Below, in pieces: positions 27,100 to 43,924 of a DNA stretch of 64,000 nt (positions are counted from its first letter, which is position 1; each line of letters starts with the position of its first letter). The notes beneath the pieces are model-generated. The model searched no databases. It was not told the DNA's origin and was given only the letters and a program-made list of their open reading frames with translations. Both the position numbers and the translations under genes were made by a program. The DNA is from an uncultured Mycoplasmatota bacterium (GTDB lineage: Bacteria > Bacillota_I > Bacilli_A > RF39 > UBA660): NCBI GenBank assembly GCA_937944975.1, contig CALEBF010000012.1:103418-167417 (forward strand). Direction: 5' to 3'.

Positions 27100-27805
27100 G
27101 ATATTTTGCAATTTCTAAAATATACTTACCTTTTTTGCTTTTACCTACAATTGATTGGAGTTGATATTTTCCATATTTTCGAATGGAAAATATGGCACCT
27201 TCTTCCATTTCTAATGTTCCCCTATTTGCTTCTTGATACTGGTATATAATATACCGTTGTTCAAATAGTTCTAATACTTTTTTTCTAGAAAGTCCTGTAA
27301 TCGTAGCAACGACAGCATCCAATCTAAGGCTCGATGTAAGATATGTTTCTTTTATTTTCTTCGGCTCATAGTCTACAATCACATCTACTGGTTTTTGCTC
27401 AATTTCAACTGGTATCTTCCCTATATGTGTAAAATATTGTTCAAAATATCTAAGGCAAGATTGTACAATCCATAAATAGACGACATTATTTATTACAACG
27501 ATATCTCCATACATCTCAGGTTCTGTTTGATGAGAAAATAATGTGCCCAATACTTGAGAATGCGTTACTTTCTCTTTTGCAGTCACTTTGATACAACTCA
27601 CCATAGGATCATTGGTATATAATACCGTCTTCTCTGCTTCTGTAAATGGTTGAAAAAGATAACAAGGTATATTTCTTTTCTTACACATCTGCAAAAGGAT
27701 CATCACCTTTCTCGGATCCAGAAAATTAGTTGCACTTCCTCTTTCTAAACGTTCGATACAAGATGCAAAAAACATTTTCTCTTGTCTATTTATTATCTTT
27801 TTCAT
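27095..27805 (-). CDS. YlmH-like RNA-binding protein with C-terminal S4 domain
   Basis: C-terminal SLRLDAVVATITGLSRKKVLELFEQRYI S4-like motif; overlaps 3' end of ABC-F gene. Confidence 0.5.
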   Translation of the reverse strand: MKKIINRQEKMFFASCIERLERGSATNFLDPRKVMILLQMCKKRNIPCYLFQPFTEAEKTVLYTNDPMVSCIKVTAKEKVTHSQVLGTLFSHQTEPEMYGDIVVINNVVYLWIVQSCLRYFEQYFTHIGKIPVEIEQKPVDVIVDYEPKKIKETYLTSSLRLDAVVATITGLSRKKVLELFEQRYIIYQYQEANRGTLEMEEGAIFSIRKYGKYQLQSIVGKSKKGKYILEIAKYQ

Positions 27806-29387
27806 TTTGAAACTCTAAATATTCCTCGTATGTCATCTGTTTATCGATATATCCACCATCTTCTGTAATTTCAATAATACGATTTGCAACTGTTTCAATC
27901 AGTTCCAAGTCGAAACTTGAAAATAGAATAGCACCTGTAAATTTTTTCATTCCGAGATTGAGTGAATGAATCGATTCAATATCTAAATGATTGGTTGGTT
28001 CATCCAATAATAATAAGTTTCCTTGTTCTAACATCATTTTAGCGAGCATGCTACGTACTTTTTCTCCTCCGGATAAGACAGATACTTTCTTTAAACTTTC
28101 CTCTCCTGAAAATAACATACGGCCTAAAAATCCACGAATGAAACTCTCTTCTTGATTTTTAGAATATTGTCGTAACCATTCAACTAAGTTAAAATCACAT
28201 TCGAAATATTTGCTGTGATCTTTCGCAAAATATGATAACTTCACTGTAGTCCCAAACTTGATTGTTCCGCTGTCTGGCTTTTCTTCACCCGCTATTATTT
28301 TAAACAACATCGTCTTTGCCTGTTCGTTCATTCCAACAAATGCAATTTTATCATCTCGACGCACAGTTAAAGAAAAATCTTTTAACAGTACCTTCCCATC
28401 TACAGTTTTGTTTATTTTTTCAAGAGTCAATACTTCCTTTCCAAGTGGTCGCTCTATTTCAAAACTGATAAATGGATACTTCCGGCTAGAAGGAATAATT
28501 TCATCTAATTTTATTTTTTCAAGTGCCTTTTTACGTGATGTCGCCTGTTTTGACTTCGATGCATTTGCAGAAAATCGCTCAATAAATGACTTTAACTCTG
28601 CAATTTTTTCTTCTTTTTTCTTATTAGAATCCCTCATTTGTTTTTGAATCAATTCACTTGATTCAAACCAAAAGTCATAGTTTCCAACAAACATTGTTAA
28701 TTTTTGATAATCGATATCTACCATATGAGTACATACTTTATTTAAGAAATGGCGATCATGACTTACAACAATAACTGTATTTTTAAAATTGATTAAAAAT
28801 TCTTCTAACCACATCTTACTTGCAATATCAAGTCCGTTGGTTGGCTCATCTAAAAGTAAAATATCAGGGTTGCCAAATAACGCACGAGCCAATAATACTT
28901 TTACTTTATCAGTATCTTTTAAATCTCCCATCATTGCTGAATGTAACTCTACAGGCAGTCCCAATCCTGAAAGCAAAATTGCTGCATCGCTTTCTGCCTG
29001 CCACCCATTCTTCGCTTCAAATCTCTCCTCTAACTCACCAGCACGAATTCCATCTGCTTCACTAAAATCTGGTTTTGTATAAATTGCTTCTTTTTCCTTC
29101 ATGATGTCATATAGTTCACTATCCCCCATAATTACCGTTTCCAATACAGGATAAGTATCAAATTCGTTGTGATTTTGCTTTAAAATAGAGATACGCTCTC
29201 CATTTGGGACACTTACTGTTCCTGTTGTTGTTTCAATCTCTCCACTCAATATTTTTAAAAAAGTAGATTTCCCAGCACCATTTGCTCCAATTAATCCATA
29301 ACAATTATCTCCTACAAACTCCATATTGACATTTTCAAATAAAGTTTTCTTTCCGAATCTTAAACTCACATTTTGAACTTTTAACAC
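27786..29387 (-). CDS. ABC-F family ATPase (tandem NBDs, no TMD; translation/ribosome-associated)
   Basis: NBD1 Walker A GANGAGKST, signatures LSGGEK x2, Walker B LLLDEPTN x2, inter-domain linker; NBD2 Walker A degenerate (GMNEQAKT). Confidence 0.8.
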   Translation of the reverse strand: MLKVQNVSLRFGKKTLFENVNMEFVGDNCYGLIGANGAGKSTFLKILSGEIETTTGTVSVPNGERISILKQNHNEFDTYPVLETVIMGDSELYDIMKEKEAIYTKPDFSEADGIRAGELEERFEAKNGWQAESDAAILLSGLGLPVELHSAMMGDLKDTDKVKVLLARALFGNPDILLLDEPTNGLDIASKMWLEEFLINFKNTVIVVSHDRHFLNKVCTHMVDIDYQKLTMFVGNYDFWFESSELIQKQMRDSNKKKEEKIAELKSFIERFSANASKSKQATSRKKALEKIKLDEIIPSSRKYPFISFEIERPLGKEVLTLEKINKTVDGKVLLKDFSLTVRRDDKIAFVGMNEQAKTMLFKIIAGEEKPDSGTIKFGTTVKLSYFAKDHSKYFECDFNLVEWLRQYSKNQEESFIRGFLGRMLFSGEESLKKVSVLSGGEKVRSMLAKMMLEQGNLLLLDEPTNHLDIESIHSLNLGMKKFTGAILFSSFDLELIETVANRIIEITEDGGYIDKQMTYEEYLEFQNEKDNK

Positions 29388-29456: not shown

Positions 29457-30044
29457 TTATTTTCTACCTTTTACTTTTTTAGGATGTTCAGCTCCTAAGT
29501 TGCAATCTATTTCGCGTAGTATAATATCCCTAGTCGTGATTAATTTATCCCTTTTCTTTTTTAAACTCCCTATTTTTTTCTGTTGTCTTCGAATTGTAAG
29601 CACACTCTCACATAGACATTTTGTTGATATCAATACTAACGAACTAGAAATAATAGATGCTCCTCGATAAATCGCACATATGCTACAGATAGGAGGTAAG
29701 AGATAAGATAAGTTAATATAAGTTAAATGGATTTGATTAACAACAGAATTTTCTTTTCGGCCATCTTTATAAACTTCTTTTTTTCTTTCACTCATGGCAT
29801 AGCTTGTCGTAAGCGCTATCACGCTTAAACCTTTTAAAGCAACTGCAGTTGAAGGAATCGTGTTGAAATCTTGTAAAACGCAATAGCCAGTTGCAAGGAC
29901 AGTTGCTGTTAAAACACTATAGTATGTCAATTGAAGTTTACGTTCTTCTTTTAACAATTCCTTATATAATTCAATATTTTTTTCATATTTTTTTATATTA
30001 CGATCTAAAATAAGATTTTCTTCCTTTGATTTGTTTTGATCCAT
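29457..30044 (-). CDS. small coiled-coil membrane protein, tandem paralog 1 of 3 (unknown family)
   Basis: ATG 30044 (MDQNKSKEE) with GAGGTGA RBS; shares ATGYxVLxDFN, LKGL, HLTYINL, YRGASIISS-LVLIST motifs with the two upstream paralogs. Confidence 0.6.
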   Translation of the reverse strand: MDQNKSKEENLILDRNIKKYEKNIELYKELLKEERKLQLTYYSVLTATVLATGYCVLQDFNTIPSTAVALKGLSVIALTTSYAMSERKKEVYKDGRKENSVVNQIHLTYINLSYLLPPICSICAIYRGASIISSSLVLISTKCLCESVLTIRRQQKKIGSLKKKRDKLITTRDIILREIDCNLGAEHPKKVKGRK

Positions 30045-30167
30045 ATTTTTCACCTCGACTGGTGTATATTATACCATGTATTCTTTTCACTTACAATTGT
30101 ATCCTATTATAGGATAACATATAAATAAAGAAGATGTAGATACAAAAAAATTAATTCATCACTTGAA

Positions 30168-30734
30168 TCAATTTTTAATTTTTTGTTTCTCCTGATCGAT
30201 TCCCAAACTTTCTAAAATTCTTTTCTTATCTTCTTTCTTTCTGTTAATGATTTCCTGTTTCTCTTTTTCAAGTTCATTTATATTTCTTATAGTAAGTGCG
30301 TTTAAACACATATTATTTGTACTTATCAGTACTAATAAGCTACTCATAATAGATGCCCCACGATTAATTGCATATAAACTGCAAACAGGAGCTAAAAGTA
30401 ATGGCAAATTAATGTAAGTTAAATGTATTTTACTTCTTACTGTTTTTTCCTTCCAAAGTTTCTTGGCTTTACCATTTGTGTTCAACGCATACCATGTTAT
30501 AATTGAAACTGCACCTAATCCCTTTATGGAAATTGAAACTGGAGAACTAATATTAAAATCACTTAACACAAAATAACCAGTTGCTAATAAATTACTAGCA
30601 AAAAAACTGCAGACAATTATCTTCCTTTTTTTACTCTGATCTAATACACCTTCAAACGCTCTAATTTCTTCTTCCGTTTTTTTTAATTCGCAATATAATC
30701 TTTCTTGCTCTTCCCTAGTATTATCTTGTCTCAC
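30168..30734 (-). CDS. small coiled-coil membrane protein, tandem paralog 2 of 3
   Basis: GTG start 30734 with GAGGTGA RBS; motifs ATGYFVLSDFN, IKGLGAVSI, HLTYINL, NRGASIMSSLLVLIST. Confidence 0.6.
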   Translation of the reverse strand: MRQDNTREEQERLYCELKKTEEEIRAFEGVLDQSKKRKIIVCSFFASNLLATGYFVLSDFNISSPVSISIKGLGAVSIITWYALNTNGKAKKLWKEKTVRSKIHLTYINLPLLLAPVCSLYAINRGASIMSSLLVLISTNNMCLNALTIRNINELEKEKQEIINRKKEDKKRILESLGIDQEKQKIKN

Positions 30735-31119
30735 AGTTTCACCTCAATTGATGTTTACTATATCATATGTGTTTTTTCATGTCAATCCAAATCTATCTTG
30801 TCCCTTTGATCTGTATTAACTATTACGCCTTCTTATGGATTCAAGCTTTTATAACTTTCTTTAATTAAAATTATATCATTACTTTTTTCAGTGTTGAAGT
30901 AATCTTTGAGATCTTATAAATCATCGCTACAATTAATATAGCTTACATCAGAGGATAATTTTTGATTGGATTTATCTGATTCCTTATTCCAGCTACTTAC
31001 TATTTCCATTCCAGACATATCATATTTGTTGTTTAAATATGATATAGTTTCTTTTATGTTTACCCATGAAAAAACACCTCTAAAGTTCTTTCTAAATAAA
31101 TTTTATCATATTTCTATAA

Positions 31120-31764
31120 TTATTTAGTGAGAACTTTAAAGGTATTATAATCTTTTCTACTTTTTTTCTGACATACGGGTTCAATATTTAATGATTCCTC
31201 ACTGTCCTGTTCTAATTCTGAACATAATAATCTTTCCCTTAATTCAATACAATTCTTAATTTTTTCATTTGACCTCTTAATAGTCTTGTATTGTTTTTTT
31301 ATTTCTACAATTGTATTACACAAAAAATTTGATGCCCACAGTACTAAACCACTACTTAAAATTGATGCACCATTATATATTGCCCCTGCAACACATAATG
31401 ATTCTAAGAAAAAAGAAGTATTGATATATGTAAAACGAAACTTATGTGATGATGTTTGTTCTATTGTTGATTTTTTTTGAGCCTCTATTTTTTTGACTTT
31501 CAAAACATAACGCGTACCTACTGCAATAGCACTTAATCCCTTCAAAGTGATAGTTGTTGGAGTTACTAATTTGAAATCATTGCATATGCAATAGCCGAGT
31601 GACAACGAAGCAAAAGCTAAAATAGTATACGTTATTTGTTGTTCCCTACGATCCTTTTCAAGCTCTATTTGATCTGAAATGATCATTTTTTCTAAATTTT
31701 TCAACACCATCTTTCGATGGTTTTGTTGCTGTGACCTATATTCATTACTATTACTTTGATTCAT
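31120..31764 (-). CDS. small coiled-coil membrane protein, tandem paralog 3 of 3
   Basis: ATG 31764 (MNQSNSNE) with GAGGTGA RBS; motifs LGYCICNDFK, LKGLSAIAV, FTYINT, YNGASILSSGLVLWAS; shares 21-nt 5' leader AGTAAACATCAATTGAGGTGA with paralog 2. Confidence 0.6.
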   Translation of the reverse strand: MNQSNSNEYRSQQQNHRKMVLKNLEKMIISDQIELEKDRREQQITYTILAFASLSLGYCICNDFKLVTPTTITLKGLSAIAVGTRYVLKVKKIEAQKKSTIEQTSSHKFRFTYINTSFFLESLCVAGAIYNGASILSSGLVLWASNFLCNTIVEIKKQYKTIKRSNEKIKNCIELRERLLCSELEQDSEESLNIEPVCQKKSRKDYNTFKVLTK

Positions 31765-31818
31765 AATAATCACCTCAATTGATGTTTACTTTAACATCAA
31801 TACATTTCTTTGTCAAAT

Positions 31819-33528
31819 TTAATTCACTAATATTAATTGACCATCTTTTTTTACTTGGTATATTTTACTTTTCTGGACTTTCCCTTCTAATGAATCTGGA
31901 ACCTGTCTAAAGTATATATACTCATATCTATCTATTTTGGTTTGATCAAATATTTCTTCAAATGTTATGTGATTTAAATTTTCTTTAGACGTTATATTGA
32001 GATAATATCTAACTTGTCCCTGTTCAGTTTCAAGCAGCAAAGGATCAAAAATCATCACATCGTATTTTTTAGCAAGTTCACCAACTTGATACCACTCTTC
32101 TTCTAATTTATTTTCTCTCTGATCGATCCAATTTAAAACTTGATTATATGGCACAAACAAGCAAAAAATACAAATAAAAATAATATGCTCTCTTGTTGTT
32201 TTTAATTGTGTGAATATTAAAATCATAAAAGCAATAAATACACCATTCATAAAAATTACAATATAGCGTTCATAAGAAGATAGCCGTATCGCTTCATATG
32301 TATCAAATTGAAATAAATACATTAATAACAAGCCAATCGGATATGCAATTGCTCCGCTAATCATGAGAATATTAAAATATTTTAACTTTTTACTATATTT
32401 TAACTTCTGCTTTTGATAAATTCCATAAGCTACTAATATTAGAAGAATGATGATACTGATATAATCTAAAAAAACAGGACTAGTAACAATTTTTAATTGA
32501 AAAAAACTTGTAAAAAACTTAGAGATAATGCCTATTTGCGTTTCAGTCCATTGAAGTGTTATCAAATTTAAGATTTGCTCAAAAGAAATGGCATTTTGAT
32601 GTTGCAAAGGAGTGTGAAACAAAGATAGACAAATACTCCAGCTTAATCGTGATAAAACAACAGCACTCGCCAACATAAAAAATGTTTCCCATTTTCCTAT
32701 TTTTTTTACTTTGATGCAAATCGCCCAATATGCTAAGGCAATCAACGAGAAAAATAGTCCAATATCTTTTAGTAACGTAAGTGTAATAAGTGCTAATACT
32801 AAATTAGCTAGATCAAACCGACTCATACCTTTCTTTATTCTTTGCATCATCCACACCATAATATAGGCAAATAAAACACCGAGCAAGCCATCAACATAAA
32901 TACAATTATAATAACTAATAAATAGCACGGTTGGTACAGCGAGTACAAAAAACAAAGACAGGAAAAAGTTTTTTTTCGTCAATTTTAAAAATGGCAATAT
33001 GAGAGATGCTCCAAACAAATAAAAAGTTATATATAAAATACTCTCGCTAAAAGTTCCACAAATTGACATAAACGTGTATTGCAACAGTGATATAGCAGGT
33101 GGATAAGATGGGTACATAATATAATCCATATGAAACGATAATTGGTGAGAATTCCACATTGCTTTTACAACACTACCCCAATGCTTATATTCATCAATAT
33201 AAGCAATGTGCTTGTTAAAATTAAAAAGTACGATTACTAAAAAAATACAAAAATAAAGCCATAACGTTGGATCATTTATATATTGTTTTAATACTGTCTT
33301 AAAGTTGTGACGAATTTTATAAATTGCATAACATAAAAAACAGAGAAAACATACAAGAAGTGAAAAAAACGCAACTTGTAGGTTATACATCCCCCACACA
33401 TACATCCATAACATAATAAAAAAGAAAGAAAAAGGAATAGTATCTTTCCATTCCTTTCCAAAAGTCACACCAAATGAAAAGGAAAATAAAATTAGAAAGA
33501 AAAATATGAGTAAAAAACAACCTATCAT
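31819..33528 (-). CDS. large polytopic membrane protein, putative GT-C fold glycosyltransferase (YfhO/ArnT/PMT-like)
   Basis: 569 aa, >10 TM, acidic DEY motif in first predicted loop (IAYIDEYKHWG), C-terminal ~100-aa soluble domain; follows a GT2 gene. Confidence 0.45.
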   Translation of the reverse strand: MIGCFLLIFFFLILFSFSFGVTFGKEWKDTIPFSFFFIMLWMYVWGMYNLQVAFFSLLVCFLCFLCYAIYKIRHNFKTVLKQYINDPTLWLYFCIFLVIVLFNFNKHIAYIDEYKHWGSVVKAMWNSHQLSFHMDYIMYPSYPPAISLLQYTFMSICGTFSESILYITFYLFGASLILPFLKLTKKNFFLSLFFVLAVPTVLFISYYNCIYVDGLLGVLFAYIMVWMMQRIKKGMSRFDLANLVLALITLTLLKDIGLFFSLIALAYWAICIKVKKIGKWETFFMLASAVVLSRLSWSICLSLFHTPLQHQNAISFEQILNLITLQWTETQIGIISKFFTSFFQLKIVTSPVFLDYISIIILLILVAYGIYQKQKLKYSKKLKYFNILMISGAIAYPIGLLLMYLFQFDTYEAIRLSSYERYIVIFMNGVFIAFMILIFTQLKTTREHIIFICIFCLFVPYNQVLNWIDQRENKLEEEWYQVGELAKKYDVMIFDPLLLETEQGQVRYYLNITSKENLNHITFEEIFDQTKIDRYEYIYFRQVPDSLEGKVQKSKIYQVKKDGQLILVN

Positions 33529-33532
33529 ATCA

Positions 33533-34225
33533 TCATCTCTTTCCGTTCCACATAATTTTTAAAATTCTCATAGAATCTCGCACAGGTCTAAATGTTGACG
33601 CTTTTTTTTCTTTATAGTAAATTGTTTGGATTGTACACTCTCTTATTTCAATTTTCTTAGTTACCAATTCAATCAAAACCATTAGTGCATATTCAAAACG
33701 TTCCCCTTTTATTTTGCATAACTCCGGAAGCAATTTTATCGGAAACACACGAAGACCAGATTGTGTATCATGAATTTTTTTAGAATAAAGAAAAGAAAAA
33801 ATAGCATTTGTCAATCCATTTGCAAATTTTCTTGTCATTGGTACTTGTTTTGCATTAAAATCCCGAACACCTAAAACAGGAGTTGTCGGAGATTCTAAAA
33901 ATAACTGAGAAACTTTTATCACATCGTCAATTGCATGCTGCCAATCTGCATCCACTGTAATAACTCCTATACACGGAAATTTTTGTTTTAGAATAAACGA
34001 GTACGCTTTTTTTAAGCTAAAACCTTGCCCTCGATTTACTGAATGATGTAATAATATTACATCATCTTTATTTTTTAATTTCGTAAACATAGGCTCACTG
34101 TCCATATGACTCCCATCATTTACAATGATTATTTTTAGAAAGCCTAACTTTTCTAATTCTTCCACGTAAGGGATAAACCTTTTTGGGGGATTATAGGCGG
34201 GAATTATAACAATAAGATCTTTCAT
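33533..34225 (-). CDS. family 2 glycosyltransferase, polyprenyl-phosphate sugar synthase-like (GtrB/DPM1-type, soluble)
   Basis: IIPAYNP...VNDGS...D-A-D (VDADWQH) GT-A fold motifs; 230 aa with no C-terminal TM. Confidence 0.75.
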   Translation of the reverse strand: MKDLIVIIPAYNPPKRFIPYVEELEKLGFLKIIIVNDGSHMDSEPMFTKLKNKDDVILLHHSVNRGQGFSLKKAYSFILKQKFPCIGVITVDADWQHAIDDVIKVSQLFLESPTTPVLGVRDFNAKQVPMTRKFANGLTNAIFSFLYSKKIHDTQSGLRVFPIKLLPELCKIKGERFEYALMVLIELVTKKIEIRECTIQTIYYKEKKASTFRPVRDSMRILKIMWNGKR

Positions 34226-34226
34226 T

Positions 34227-34922
34227 TTAAAGTTTTCTTACACTTTCTATATCGATTGTAAGATATGGACGAATATCCATCCCATAAGAATTAGCACCTA
34301 TAGTGACTATTCCGAAAAATCCTTTTTTTGTCGTATGATTAAAGAAGAAATTCCAACTAAACGCTCCATTAGATTCAAGCGATCTTGTATAAAATCCTCT
34401 AGTATAATAAGGGGAACCAGAATATGTAAACTTATAATCATAATCTGCAATCCAATCCCACCCAATATAATCACCTGTTGGAGGAAAAGTTGCACCCGGA
34501 TTTTTCATTAAAATTAGATTAGTTAGTTCTTCTTTACTGATTAATGTAATATTATAATAATTGGCATATCCTCCTGCTCTTTCAATACTTGATTTCCAAT
34601 TGCTGGTTAACGCTACTAAATTATAATAGACCATAGTATTTTCAAATACTGTTGATGGTGTAGTATTATATGTTGTCCCAACCGCACTATCCGAAAGCAA
34701 TTTTAAATAATCATCATGCACTTCCACTACATGGAATGTAGGCGATAATCCAACAACTTCAACTTGATCACCAATTTCATAAGTTACTGTTTTATGCGCC
34801 GTAATATTAAAGTTTAAAGACGTAGTCAGAACTGAATATCCTATCGTTAAAAAGAGAAGCGCAGAAAAAACAATTCCATATATCAGCTTTTGATTTGTTT
34901 TTCTTTTCCTTATTTTTCTCAT
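34227..34922 (-). CDS. secreted Tyr/Asn-rich protein with N-terminal IGY-anchor motif (paralog family with 13404..14381)
   Basis: Basic N-terminus (KIRKRKTNQK) then ...FLTIGYSVLTTSLNFNIT...; first gene of operon with GT2 and GT-C genes (2-nt gap to GT2). Confidence 0.55.
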   Translation of the reverse strand: MRKIRKRKTNQKLIYGIVFSALLFLTIGYSVLTTSLNFNITAHKTVTYEIGDQVEVVGLSPTFHVVEVHDDYLKLLSDSAVGTTYNTTPSTVFENTMVYYNLVALTSNWKSSIERAGGYANYYNITLISKEELTNLILMKNPGATFPPTGDYIGWDWIADYDYKFTYSGSPYYTRGFYTRSLESNGAFSWNFFFNHTTKKGFFGIVTIGANSYGMDIRPYLTIDIESVRKL

Positions 34923-42231: not shown

Positions 42232-43056
42232 CTATAATACGAATAACGTCCATAAAATAACGATAATTCCCATAGCAACACGATACCACATAAAAATTTT
42301 GAAATCGTGTTTTTTAATATATTTCATTAAAAATTCGATACATAAAAGTCCCGTAATAAATGCTACTAAGATACCAATTGCAAAAATTCCTACATTAGAT
42401 GCAATCAGCGTCACTGTGTTATCTTTGAGCAGGGTTAAGAAAGAGGCGCCAAAGATAACTGGAGCGGATAGATAGAATGAAAATTTTGCTGCATCCTCAC
42501 GATTCAACTTCATTGCGCGTGCTGCAGAAATCGTCGTTCCACTTCTCGAGAAACCTGGAATTAAAGCAAATACTTGAGCACATCCGATTACGAGAGCATC
42601 CGTCCATTTCATGTCCTCAAATGATTTTTTCTGCTTAAAATAGACATCTGCTAGATAGATGATAATTCCCATAAAAATAAGAGCACAAGCGATCAAAATA
42701 AAGTTTCCTCGAAGCAGTTCTTCAATCGTCTCTTCAAATAAAACACCAAAAATAGCCGCTGGAATCGTCGCGATTAAGATAAACCACATCAATTTCCCAT
42801 CTGTCGATTTTGGCTTTGTAAACCCACTGATTAAAATCTTCCAGAAATCTTTAAAAAAATAAATCAAAATGGCAAGTAACGTTCCTAAATGTAATGCGAT
42901 ATCAAACGTCATTGAAATATTACTTCCAATTTCACTTCCAATTCCAAAAACATCTCTAAAAATAATAAGATGAGCCGAAGAAGAAATCGGTAAAAATTCT
43001 GCGATCCCTTGTACGATTCCTAAAATAATCACTTCTATCCAAAGCATGTTATTCAT
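42232..43056 (-). CDS. uppP: undecaprenyl-diphosphate phosphatase UppP/BacA
   Basis: Conserved SSSAHL and PGFSRSGTTISAARA motifs, 8-TM profile. Confidence 0.85.
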   Translation of the reverse strand: MNNMLWIEVIILGIVQGIAEFLPISSSAHLIIFRDVFGIGSEIGSNISMTFDIALHLGTLLAILIYFFKDFWKILISGFTKPKSTDGKLMWFILIATIPAAIFGVLFEETIEELLRGNFILIACALIFMGIIIYLADVYFKQKKSFEDMKWTDALVIGCAQVFALIPGFSRSGTTISAARAMKLNREDAAKFSFYLSAPVIFGASFLTLLKDNTVTLIASNVGIFAIGILVAFITGLLCIEFLMKYIKKHDFKIFMWYRVAMGIIVILWTLFVL

Positions 43057-43924
43057 CTCCTAACTTATAGGCAATGACTCCACCAATTGCCATAAAAATA
43101 ATTCCTATTAAAACTTGTGGTATAGAAAATACTAAAGTTTCTACCTCATTATAAGTAGAAATTGGAATAGCGAGGATACTTGCAAAAATGAATCCTAATA
43201 CTCCATAATATGTCTTTGATTCAAACTTTTTCAGTAAAAATTCGATGATTTTAGAAATGAGCACAATTCCTACTAACACACCGACACCAAAGACGCCTGC
43301 AATCACAATATTTTCTCCTAAATTTTCAAACTTGGTAAGAGCCTTCACAATCTTTAGAATTGGATAGTAATATCCGAGTAACATCAATACTAAAGAACCA
43401 CTTACTCCTGGGATTACCATCGTTGCAGCAGCAATCACTCCGACGCAAAATAGAATCAGGTATCCCCAAAGATCTAGTCCATTCAAATTCACTTTTGCGG
43501 TTGTTCCAAATAATTGGTCTGCAAATGCCATCACGATAACGAGCGAAAAAGTCATGAGAAGAATGATCCAACTAGAGATTTCTTTTCCCTCCTTCTTCCC
43601 TTTGACTTTGCGATATAACATCGGAATACCTCCAATTACGAGCCCCACGAAAAATAGTGTCGTCGGAATTGGAAAATGCTCGTACGAGTAATCGATCACG
43701 CGACTCATCGATAAAATAGCAAGGCAAAGTCCAATCGCGATTGGTAATAAGAACTTAATATTTTCTTTTAAGTTAGAGAAAAAGTGACTGATTGCTCCAA
43801 TAAAACGTTCGTAAATTCCGAGTGTTAAAGCAAGTGTACCACCACTGACTCCTGGAATAATGTTAGCGATTCCCATGATAAAACCTTTTACTCCAAGAAT
43901 GATATTTTCCTTTATTTTCTTCAT
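43049..43924 (-). CDS. DUF368-like membrane protein (candidate undecaprenyl-phosphate translocase family)
   Basis: Internal duplication with IPGVSGGT / IPGVSGS motifs, ~8 TM; 8-nt overlap with uppP start. Confidence 0.5.
   Translation of the reverse strand: MKKIKENIILGVKGFIMGIANIIPGVSGGTLALTLGIYERFIGAISHFFSNLKENIKFLLPIAIGLCLAILSMSRVIDYSYEHFPIPTTLFFVGLVIGGIPMLYRKVKGKKEGKEISSWIILLMTFSLVIVMAFADQLFGTTAKVNLNGLDLWGYLILFCVGVIAAATMVIPGVSGSLVLMLLGYYYPILKIVKALTKFENLGENIVIAGVFGVGVLVGIVLISKIIEFLLKKFESKTYYGVLGFIFASILAIPISTYNEVETLVFSIPQVLIGIIFMAIGGVIAYKLGDE

Follow-up and report, generated by a model that had tools for sequence, protein, structure and literature searches.

Small membrane partners of GT2 glycosyltransferases have precedents, and some of these systems are close to the locus presented here. 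The GtrA/GtrA_DPMS_TM family (PF04138), with GtrA, GtcA, Rv3789 and the type-III DPMS among its members, has four transmembrane (TM) segments in two hairpins and cytoplasmic termini; in the type-III DPMS, the GtrA-like TM domain is dispensable for catalysis and was proposed to translocate the product (PMC12992685). The DUF2304 proteins (PF10066) GacJ and Rv3632 stimulate GacI and PpgS, and GacJ complexes with its own GT2, whose Km for undecaprenyl phosphate it lowers (10.1101/180810); GacJ has 113 amino acids (aa) and three TM segments, and its gene is found directly after that of its own GT2, sometimes fused. As for DPM1, DPM3 and DPM2 hold this soluble GT2 at the membrane, the former by its coiled coil (PMC9633384); the two subunits together bring four TM segments and a cytoplasmic coiled coil to which the enzyme binds (PMC9633384, PMC12992685). 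The locus compared with these systems lies in a stretch of 64,000 nucleotides from an uncultured Mycoplasmatota bacterium of the RF39 lineage (GCA_937944975.1, contig CALEBF010000012.1, positions 103,418 to 167,417 of the forward strand), the whole of which is called the window in the following; it contains three paralogous genes for small membrane proteins, located next to the genes of a GT2 and of a putative GT-C enzyme. The proteins form a new sequence family, for which a role as membrane partner of these two enzymes is proposed here tentatively.

The three genes are on the minus strand. Paralog 1 (29457..30044) encodes 195 aa from an ATG at 30044, paralog 2 (30168..30734) encodes 188 aa from a GTG at 30734, and paralog 3 (31120..31764) encodes 214 aa from an ATG at 31764. 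The open reading frames (ORFs) of paralogs 1 and 3 were listed as 29457-30053 and 31120-31773, with GTG starts that fall within the ribosome binding site (RBS), so that the ATG codons at 30044 and 31764 are the likely starts; the gene calls of public assemblies agree with the products of 195 and 188 aa (P0001 and P0003). Pairwise identity among the three paralogs is 32-40% (34-40% in the MAFFT alignment), and the paralog-versus-paralog BLASTP E-values (1.8e-37, 2.5e-31 and 2.2e-20) are far beyond chance, which bears out an earlier note on this DNA that had described three minus-strand paralogs of about 30-40% identity. A fourth copy of the family was not detected within the window. Paralog 1 is the top BLAST scorer against the orthologs of sister lineages, while paralog 3 is found at the ancestral position, about 54 nucleotides past the GT-C gene, where the single-copy orthologs are placed likewise.

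Regarding their anatomy, the hydropathy profiles have four TM segments arranged as two hydrophobic hairpins, TM1-TM2 and TM3-TM4, with a basic loop between them that counts 18-26 residues in the first two paralogs and in the ortholog P0004; the external turns are very short. Lys and Arg are abundant in the N-terminal 35-42 residues, in the central loop and in the C-terminal 39-59 residues, hence the predicted topology is N-in/C-in; the family is predicted to consist of small inner-membrane proteins whose two terminal helices and basic loop face the cytoplasm. The AlphaFold model, built on an alignment of four sequences, had a predicted local distance difference test score (pLDDT) of 69.6 and a predicted template modeling score (pTM) of 0.51; it has one helix at residues 2-60 (N-terminal extension and TM1) and one at residues 131-182 (TM4 and C-terminal extension), with block-mean pLDDT values of 87-93 for the terminal extensions (residues ∼11-40 and ∼151-180) and a disordered central loop. 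Heptad periodicity, in a crude test, reached significance in one of ten terminal segments only, and these parts are therefore termed charged helical extensions instead of proven coiled coils. Thus, of the common architecture drawn in the earlier note, the two hydrophobic hairpins, the basic loop and the charged helical ends stand, and a coiled coil in the strict sense is not borne out; similarly, the motifs that it quoted are present, with the difference that paralog 3 deviates from them, having SLGYCICNDFK, RFTYINT and YNGASILSSGLVLWAS. The residues invariant across paralogs and orthologs are the Asp that ends TM1, Gly-Leu in TM2, Tyr-Ile-Asn before TM3, Cys and Ala in TM3, Gly in the TM3-TM4 turn, and Ser, Leu and Cys in TM4.

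No member of the family has a significant match in Pfam, NCBIfam, PADLOC or PHROGs, in line with the claim that it belongs to no assignable family, and a sequence-profile search of the PDB gave no match either. Among 5.8 billion protein clusters, a profile search recovered the three paralogs only; an exhaustive hidden Markov model search of 1.84 billion representatives added one relative, P0004 (E 1.3e-18), and a further search added P0008, 58-59% identical to P0004. Three other candidates, P0005-P0007, were rejected as low-complexity artifacts, and weak matches upstream of the ABC-F gene in loci L019 and L023 turned out to be unrelated zinc-ribbon ORFs. No further family loci were found in GTDB-representative genomes, viral contigs, JGI metagenome contigs, GenBank phages and plasmids. 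The species of the window is not among the GTDB representatives searched (the best ABC-F match is 77%), and a scan for the family pattern in that set found none. The window is identical to contig CABUPC010000003.1 of GCA_902493485.1, and its nearest relatives, as judged from ABC-F identity (66-77%), are metagenome-assembled genomes (MAGs) labeled as uncultured "Bacilli", "Tenericutes" and "Mollicutes". On these searches, the proteins are a new sequence family, a lineage-restricted orphan known from few related uncultured gut bacteria.

The genes of the two enzymes precede paralog 3 on the same strand. The GT2 (33533..34225, minus strand; 230 aa) is of the polyprenyl-phosphate type and matches PF00535; its best NCBIfam matches are AglJ and, in second place, PpgS, both below the cutoff, and it lacks a TM segment, given that its maximum hydropathy over 19 residues is 1.15. 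The second gene (31819..33528, minus strand) encodes a polytopic membrane protein of 569 aa with no Pfam or NCBIfam match and 11 homologs in all, in whose alignment the pair D112-E113, located after the early TM helices, is invariant; W117 is invariant as well, and the motif is IDEYxHWG. The AlphaFold model of this protein, built on the 11-sequence alignment, had a pLDDT of 81 and a pTM of 0.84, and its top 12 Foldseek matches in the PDB were all GT-C proteins, including PglB, STT3/OST, AftA, EmbC, DPY19 and AglB, followed by ArnT, PMT and ALG3 at ranks 14-26. These matches had probabilities of 0.63-1.00, a best E-value of 2e-3 and TM-scores of 0.40 at most, so that the GT-C fold is likely but not certain, the E-values being modest. 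The acidic IDEYxHWG motif resembles the acidic motif in the first extracytoplasmic loop of GT-C enzymes. An apparent phase variation of this gene (531/535 versus 572 aa) was rejected, because the DNA is identical and the lengths reflect a difference in gene calling.

The arrangement of these genes is shared by the window species and three sister lineages, which are represented by P0004 on loci L091-L096, by L101, and by L102/L097 and L105-L110. In all of them, the order is SAM synthetase, TM2 protein, ThiF, a 177-aa protein, SMC, a protein of 231-239 aa, the GT2, the membrane protein of ∼570 aa, the small protein, a protein of 255-298 aa (in the sister lineages only), ABC-F and YlmH. The small gene is single-copy at this locus in the sister lineages, where it is followed by the soluble 255-298-aa gene, and all the family members found sit directly past the GT-C gene, in four lineages. 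The more distant relatives (L011-L025) lack the block in the SMC-to-ABC-F interval and have unrelated genes there, or SMC abuts ABC-F, which makes the interval a variable accessory region and the block in it clade-specific. The ORFs found in the interval of these relatives are thioredoxin-like, zinc-ribbon and PHP-like, along with several unassigned ones. The housekeeping gene for the ABC-F ATPase (27786..29387, minus strand) is the downstream border of this interval, and the flanks of the array, ABC-F on one side (27786-29387) and the GT2 and polytopic membrane genes on the other (31819-34225), are as the earlier note described them. A clear composition signal of horizontal transfer was not found, as the block has a GC content at third codon positions of 0.20-0.25, similar to that of ABC-F and YlmH.

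In the interpretation favored here, which is offered as a possibility with considerable doubt attached, the family is a non-homologous membrane partner, either an anchor/activator or a flippase, acting in trans on the putatively undecaprenyl-phosphate-dependent glycosylation module. The soluble 230-aa GT2 would load a sugar onto the lipid on the inner side of the membrane, and the GT-C enzyme would then transfer the sugar of this lipid outside the cell. The small protein would fill the role that a fused GtrA/DPMS-type domain with four TM segments, or a small partner subunit, has elsewhere: its cytoplasmic helices may tether or activate the GT2, and/or the protein may help the lipid-linked sugar to cross the membrane, and the triplication would supply three partner subunits, which may be alternatives or may cooperate. 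We infer this physical or functional coupling to the GT2 and the GT-C enzyme because all family members sit beside the module while distant relatives lack the whole block, because the topology with four TM segments in two hairpins and N-in/C-in termini is that of GtrA-type domains, because small partners of such GT2s have precedents, and because the GT2 has no TM segment while a distant homolog carries a fused domain with four of them.

This last point comes from the contexts of the distant GT-C homologs. In locus L103, the gene of the homolog P0018 has directly upstream a 365-aa fusion of a GT2 with a GtrA_DPMS_TM domain of four TM segments (390-1487) and downstream a gene of the epimerase/dehydratase family. 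Residues 4-225 of the window GT2 align with the catalytic part (residues 5-229) of this fusion with 43% identity (E 1e-58), and the window GT2 ends where the fused TM domain of the L103 protein begins; the fusion represents, in a bacterium, the counterpart of the type-III DPMS architecture of archaea. As for the other homologs, P0019 (L104) has no GT2 directly upstream, where a gene with an acetyltransferase domain is found instead, and P0013 (L098) and P0014 (L099) each have a GT2 devoid of TM segments directly upstream, with a pilin-like protein and a 434-aa secreted protein downstream, respectively.

Comparison with the described systems gives likenesses of context and architecture. Like the GtrA-type proteins, the family has four TM segments in two hairpins with cytoplasmic termini, and its genes are beside those of a polyprenyl-phosphate GT2 and a GT-C enzyme; like the DUF2304 proteins, it is a small membrane protein clustered with a GT2 and a GT-C; and like DPM2/DPM3, it combines four TM segments and a helical extension next to a soluble GT2. 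Apart from the family, the block encodes no candidate for a flippase or partner such as GtrA, Wzx or DUF2304.

Each paralog is preceded by its own promoter-like site, and the three sites are the best of the 2.7-kb region, all on the minus strand and each directly upstream of one paralog. That of paralog 2 (30757..30785, minus strand; TTGACA-17-TATAGT with TG) is the best of the region with 11 of 12 matches, and 10 of 12 occur in both that of paralog 3 (31788..31816, minus strand; TTGACA-17-TAAAGT with an extended -10 TG) and that of paralog 1 (30068..30096, minus strand; TTGTAA-17-TATAAT with TG). The sites are strong and sigma-70-like, and a gene for the primary sigma factor is present in the window. 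A GAGGTGA RBS precedes each of the three starts, and paralogs 2 and 3 have in common a leader of 21 nucleotides, both as the earlier note had reported. This leader, AGTAAACATCAATTGAGGTGA, is located at 31770..31790 for paralog 3, where it overlaps the -10 element and holds the palindrome TCAATTGA as well as the GAGGTGA RBS, and at 30739..30759, in identical form, for paralog 2 (both on the minus strand); it occurs exactly twice in the window, with no occurrence expected (100 shuffles, up to three mismatches allowed). The coding sequences of the paralogs are saturated (dS >1.3, dS being the synonymous and dN the nonsynonymous divergence), yet the leader is exact, which implies constraint or gene conversion, and the palindrome-bearing leader could be an operator or the product of such a conversion. 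The 8-nucleotide palindrome TCAATTGA stands between the -10 element and the RBS, and the leader that contains it is found neither in paralog 1 nor in the orthologs.

The single-copy orthologs are preceded by a similar layout, TTGACA-17-TATACT followed by a leader of ∼20 nucleotides with an RBS, and in L101 a terminator-like hairpin is located 3′ of the small gene. The promoter layout common to the orthologs, together with this terminator, indicates an ancestral monocistronic unit whose promoter was copied along with the duplications; the promoter-like sites show each copy of the window as its own putative transcription unit. As for the spacers, no Rfam family was detected in them. The one between paralogs 3 and 2 (30735..31119, minus strand; 385 nucleotides) is AT-rich, with a GC content of 0.26, and contains an ORF of 34 codons (31018-30914) called in metagenome assemblies and a frame of ∼120 codons with two stops; it looks like the relic of some gene, although no remnant of the family or of a HopA1-like gene is detectable in it.

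Regarding selection, P0004 and the P0008/L101 orthologs have a dN/dS of ∼0.22 with a dS of ∼1.2, which indicates that the orthologs are under purifying selection; this value and the conserved promoter and RBS layout argue for a functional gene. All long contigs of the species, which come from several samples, carry the three-gene array intact and with >99% identity, and the gene is kept in the sister lineages, so that the lack of conservation in relatives which the earlier note had named as a ground for refutation was not found; with copies this similar, dN/dS among strains is uninformative. Identity is higher among the paralogs (32-39%) than between them and the orthologs, which is consistent with a duplication after the lineages split. 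The tandem array of the earlier note is a real triplication, while its description as a diversifying array does not hold well: the array is confined to one species, the three sister lineages have a single copy, and the orthologs have the low dN/dS given above.

These genes vary at homopolymer tracts. At the 3′ end of paralog 3, an A7 tract (31161..31167, minus strand) is A8 in L001, L002, L006 and L010, which changes the last residues only and gives products of 214 versus 202 aa; in L006, an extra T in a T-run at ∼31418 causes a frameshift that breaks paralog 3. In the P0008 lineage, the lysine codons of the central loop have passed from A7 to A6 and the gene is split (L105-L110, ∼4245-4270; compare 8769-9335 in L101) into an ORF of 88 aa, with the N-terminal helix, TM1 and TM2, and one of 97 aa, with TM3, TM4 and the C-terminal helix, whose ATG is 2 nucleotides past the stop codon of the first. 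The split allele is present in 66 blocks of the collection, and its 88-aa product is the commonest member of its own cluster (34 contigs); the examples come from SPAdes assemblies with 5-25x coverage. Either the two halves remain functional or the cell can do without the protein, and the split could reflect phase variation, a tolerated two-subunit form or a loss of function. The 88-aa and 97-aa products mimic the two-subunit arrangement, with two TM segments each, of DPM2/DPM3. In a bolder version of the proposal, the family would be a new class of small subunit, a bacterial counterpart of DPM2/DPM3 that replaces the GtrA/DPMS domain in trans for a soluble undecaprenyl-phosphate GT2, with copy number (one or three, each copy under its own promoter) and poly-A slippage (gene intact or split) tuning or switching surface glycosylation; this version is improbable.

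Several points weigh against a partnership with the GT2 and the GT-C enzyme, since the genes are fast-evolving, monocistronic units, one lineage has a split allele, GT2/GT-C pairs exist without the family, and the synteny is of weak value. The own promoter of each gene and the terminator of L101 mean that the family is not cotranscribed with the GT2 and GT-C genes. The window paralogs are 25-27% identical to the orthologs, while the adjacent GT-C proteins are 60-63% and the 231-aa proteins of the block 52-56% identical to theirs, so that the divergence of the family has been far quicker where it is triplicated. The split allele is widespread in one sublineage in which GT2 and GT-C are intact. 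In L098 and L099, the pair formed by a GT-C and a GT2 devoid of TM segments has no small-protein neighbor. The four lineages that share the locus are closely related, so that a conserved gene order by itself says little about function. Besides, comparison of the five-member family profile with the L103 GT2-GtrA fusion by hhalign gave a probability of 0.2%, and fold searches with the family model returned generic helical hairpins only.

The described partners differ from the family in further respects that count on the same side. No match to PF04138 was found (paralogs at E≤10, P0004 and P0008 at E≤1); compared with the GtrA-type proteins, the family has ∼35 (N-terminal) and 40-60 (C-terminal) extra residues of charged cytoplasmic helix, and it is monocistronic, fast-evolving and triplicated. 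Similarly, the family does not match PF10066, and its gene follows that of the GT-C, unlike the three-TM GacJ, which is encoded after its own GT2. Finally, neither PF07297 nor PF08285 matches the family, and DPM2/DPM3 belong to another domain of life.

Among the alternatives, the proteins may be autonomous oligomerizing pores, channels or membrane remodelers (holin-like, SLATT-like or ion channels) that are adjacent to the glycosylation genes by chance, which is unlikely. The TM helices are rich in small and polar residues (Gly, Ala, Ser, Thr, Cys and Asn), TM3 and TM4 each have an invariant Cys, the GAS turn is conserved, TM1 and TM4 continue into long cytoplasmic helical extensions, each gene has a strong promoter of its own, and the SMC-to-ABC-F interval carries differing accessory genes in related MAGs; all this would suit such a function. 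One ortholog also has a trace of SLATT similarity: residues 108-169 of P0008 match SLATT_2 of NCBIfam below the threshold (E 0.046, 13.3 bits versus a cutoff of 40), a stretch that takes in TM3-TM4 and the first part of the C-terminal helix, whereas the other four members have none. The family resembles SLATT/DUF4231 proteins in this match and in the TM hairpin flanked by helices, and differs from them in having four TM segments instead of two and no fused or adjacent SMODS, SLOG, TIR or other sensor/effector domain; its neighbors are GT2, GT-C, ABC-F and the HopA1-like gene, not those of a SLATT-type context, and PADLOC reports none. As for holins and CidA/LrgA-type proteins, these too are small polytopic proteins with charged termini, but the PHROG matches of the family, all with E≥0.015, include no holin, no Pfam holin model matches, and the locus is chromosomal and syntenic, with no endolysin or phage context. 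The suggestion that the family is of holin, SLATT or DUF4231 type thus found no backing: these models are significant for no member, PADLOC gave no match, and no sensor, nucleotide-signaling, toxin, bacteriocin or lysis partner gene is adjacent. The absence of relatives in phage, plasmid and viral collections speaks against a pore of this kind and agrees with the statement that the array is not part of a phage; moreover, strong and apparently constitutive promoters are ill-suited to a lethal pore-former.

Another explanation, somewhat less plausible, is that the proteins are lineage-specific anchors or regulators of some other cytoplasmic process, tied to translation or the ribosome (ABC-F, YlmH) or to division and the chromosome (SMC), unrelated to glycosylation. 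Their soluble mass is mostly cytoplasmic and helical, the genes are monocistronic, and housekeeping genes flank the locus on both sides, all of which would fit. The relatives that lack the family tell otherwise, because there the flanking housekeeping genes adjoin or are parted by unrelated genes, and the family is therefore an insertion, not a part of those operons; no specific evidence ties it to those processes.

Further down in probability, and quite doubtful, is a function in immunity or protection against a membrane-acting toxin or bacteriocin, in the manner of an orphan-immunity expansion, maybe linked to a lost HopA1-like gene. The latter is the soluble 255-298-aa gene of the sister lineages (L091, 10635-11402; L101, 9432-10325; L102, 9429-10325), whose product passes the Pfam HopA1 threshold (PF17914, 23.8 versus 22.7 bits, E 4.7e-5). 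The window lacks this gene and has more copies of the family, and this would agree with an immunity role, as would small polytopic proteins with almost no external exposure, fast divergence, a species-specific tandem expansion and independent promoters. Against this, the window locus has no bacteriocin, toxin, secretion or LXG/WXG-type gene, no secretion signal was seen in the HopA1-like protein, the HopA1-like gene of L101 lies past the terminator-like hairpin, and the orthologs are under purifying, not diversifying, selection. There is no similarity to known immunity families, and the immunity-type role suggested in the earlier note gained no positive support. The 255-298-aa gene was also considered as a diverged paralog and rejected, since it is not a family member, and its presence as a remnant in the window spacer was rejected too, as no trace was detectable. 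Finally, decaying or non-functional duplicate ORFs without a role, to which the homopolymer frameshifts of paralog 3 (L006) and of the P0008 lineage and the very narrow distribution could point, are highly improbable, given three ORFs intact in every long strain contig, conserved RBS and promoters, the ortholog dN/dS of 0.22, and invariant motifs that span paralogs and orthologs at 25-40% identity. None of these alternatives has positive evidence beyond general architecture, and the leftover probability belongs to something else.

Regarding the rest of the glycosylation block, its first gene (34227..34922, minus strand) encodes a protein of 231 aa that is anchored by a single N-terminal TM segment and has an extracytoplasmic domain, a possible candidate acceptor for the GT-C enzyme. 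It has no family match and no BLASTP similarity to the secreted neighbors of the distant GT-C homologs. An N-I-T sequon at residue 39, past the anchor, is kept in three orthologs (window, 34227-34922; L101, 5589-6302; L102, 5583-6302). About 10 kb from the block, a BacA/UppP gene and an adjacent gene for a DUF368/VCA0040-like undecaprenyl-phosphate translocase-like protein are found in the window (42232-43924, minus strand); by its gene content (BacA and the DUF368-type gene), the organism has an undecaprenyl-phosphate pathway.

In conclusion, the meaning of the family depends on its link with the GT2 and the GT-C enzyme. If the link fails, the family is one more lineage-restricted orphan membrane protein, common in MAGs and of limited general interest. 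If it holds, the family would represent a third, non-homologous way to get a soluble polyprenyl-phosphate glycosyltransferase, together with the lipid that it makes, to and across the membrane, besides the fused or free GtrA-type domain and the DUF2304 partner; as such, it would resemble the DPM1/2/3 system of eukaryotes and bear on the question of which proteins flip lipid-monophosphate sugars. It would also add to the scant knowledge of surface glycosylation in the uncultured RF39-like, or "Tenericutes-like", gut Bacilli.

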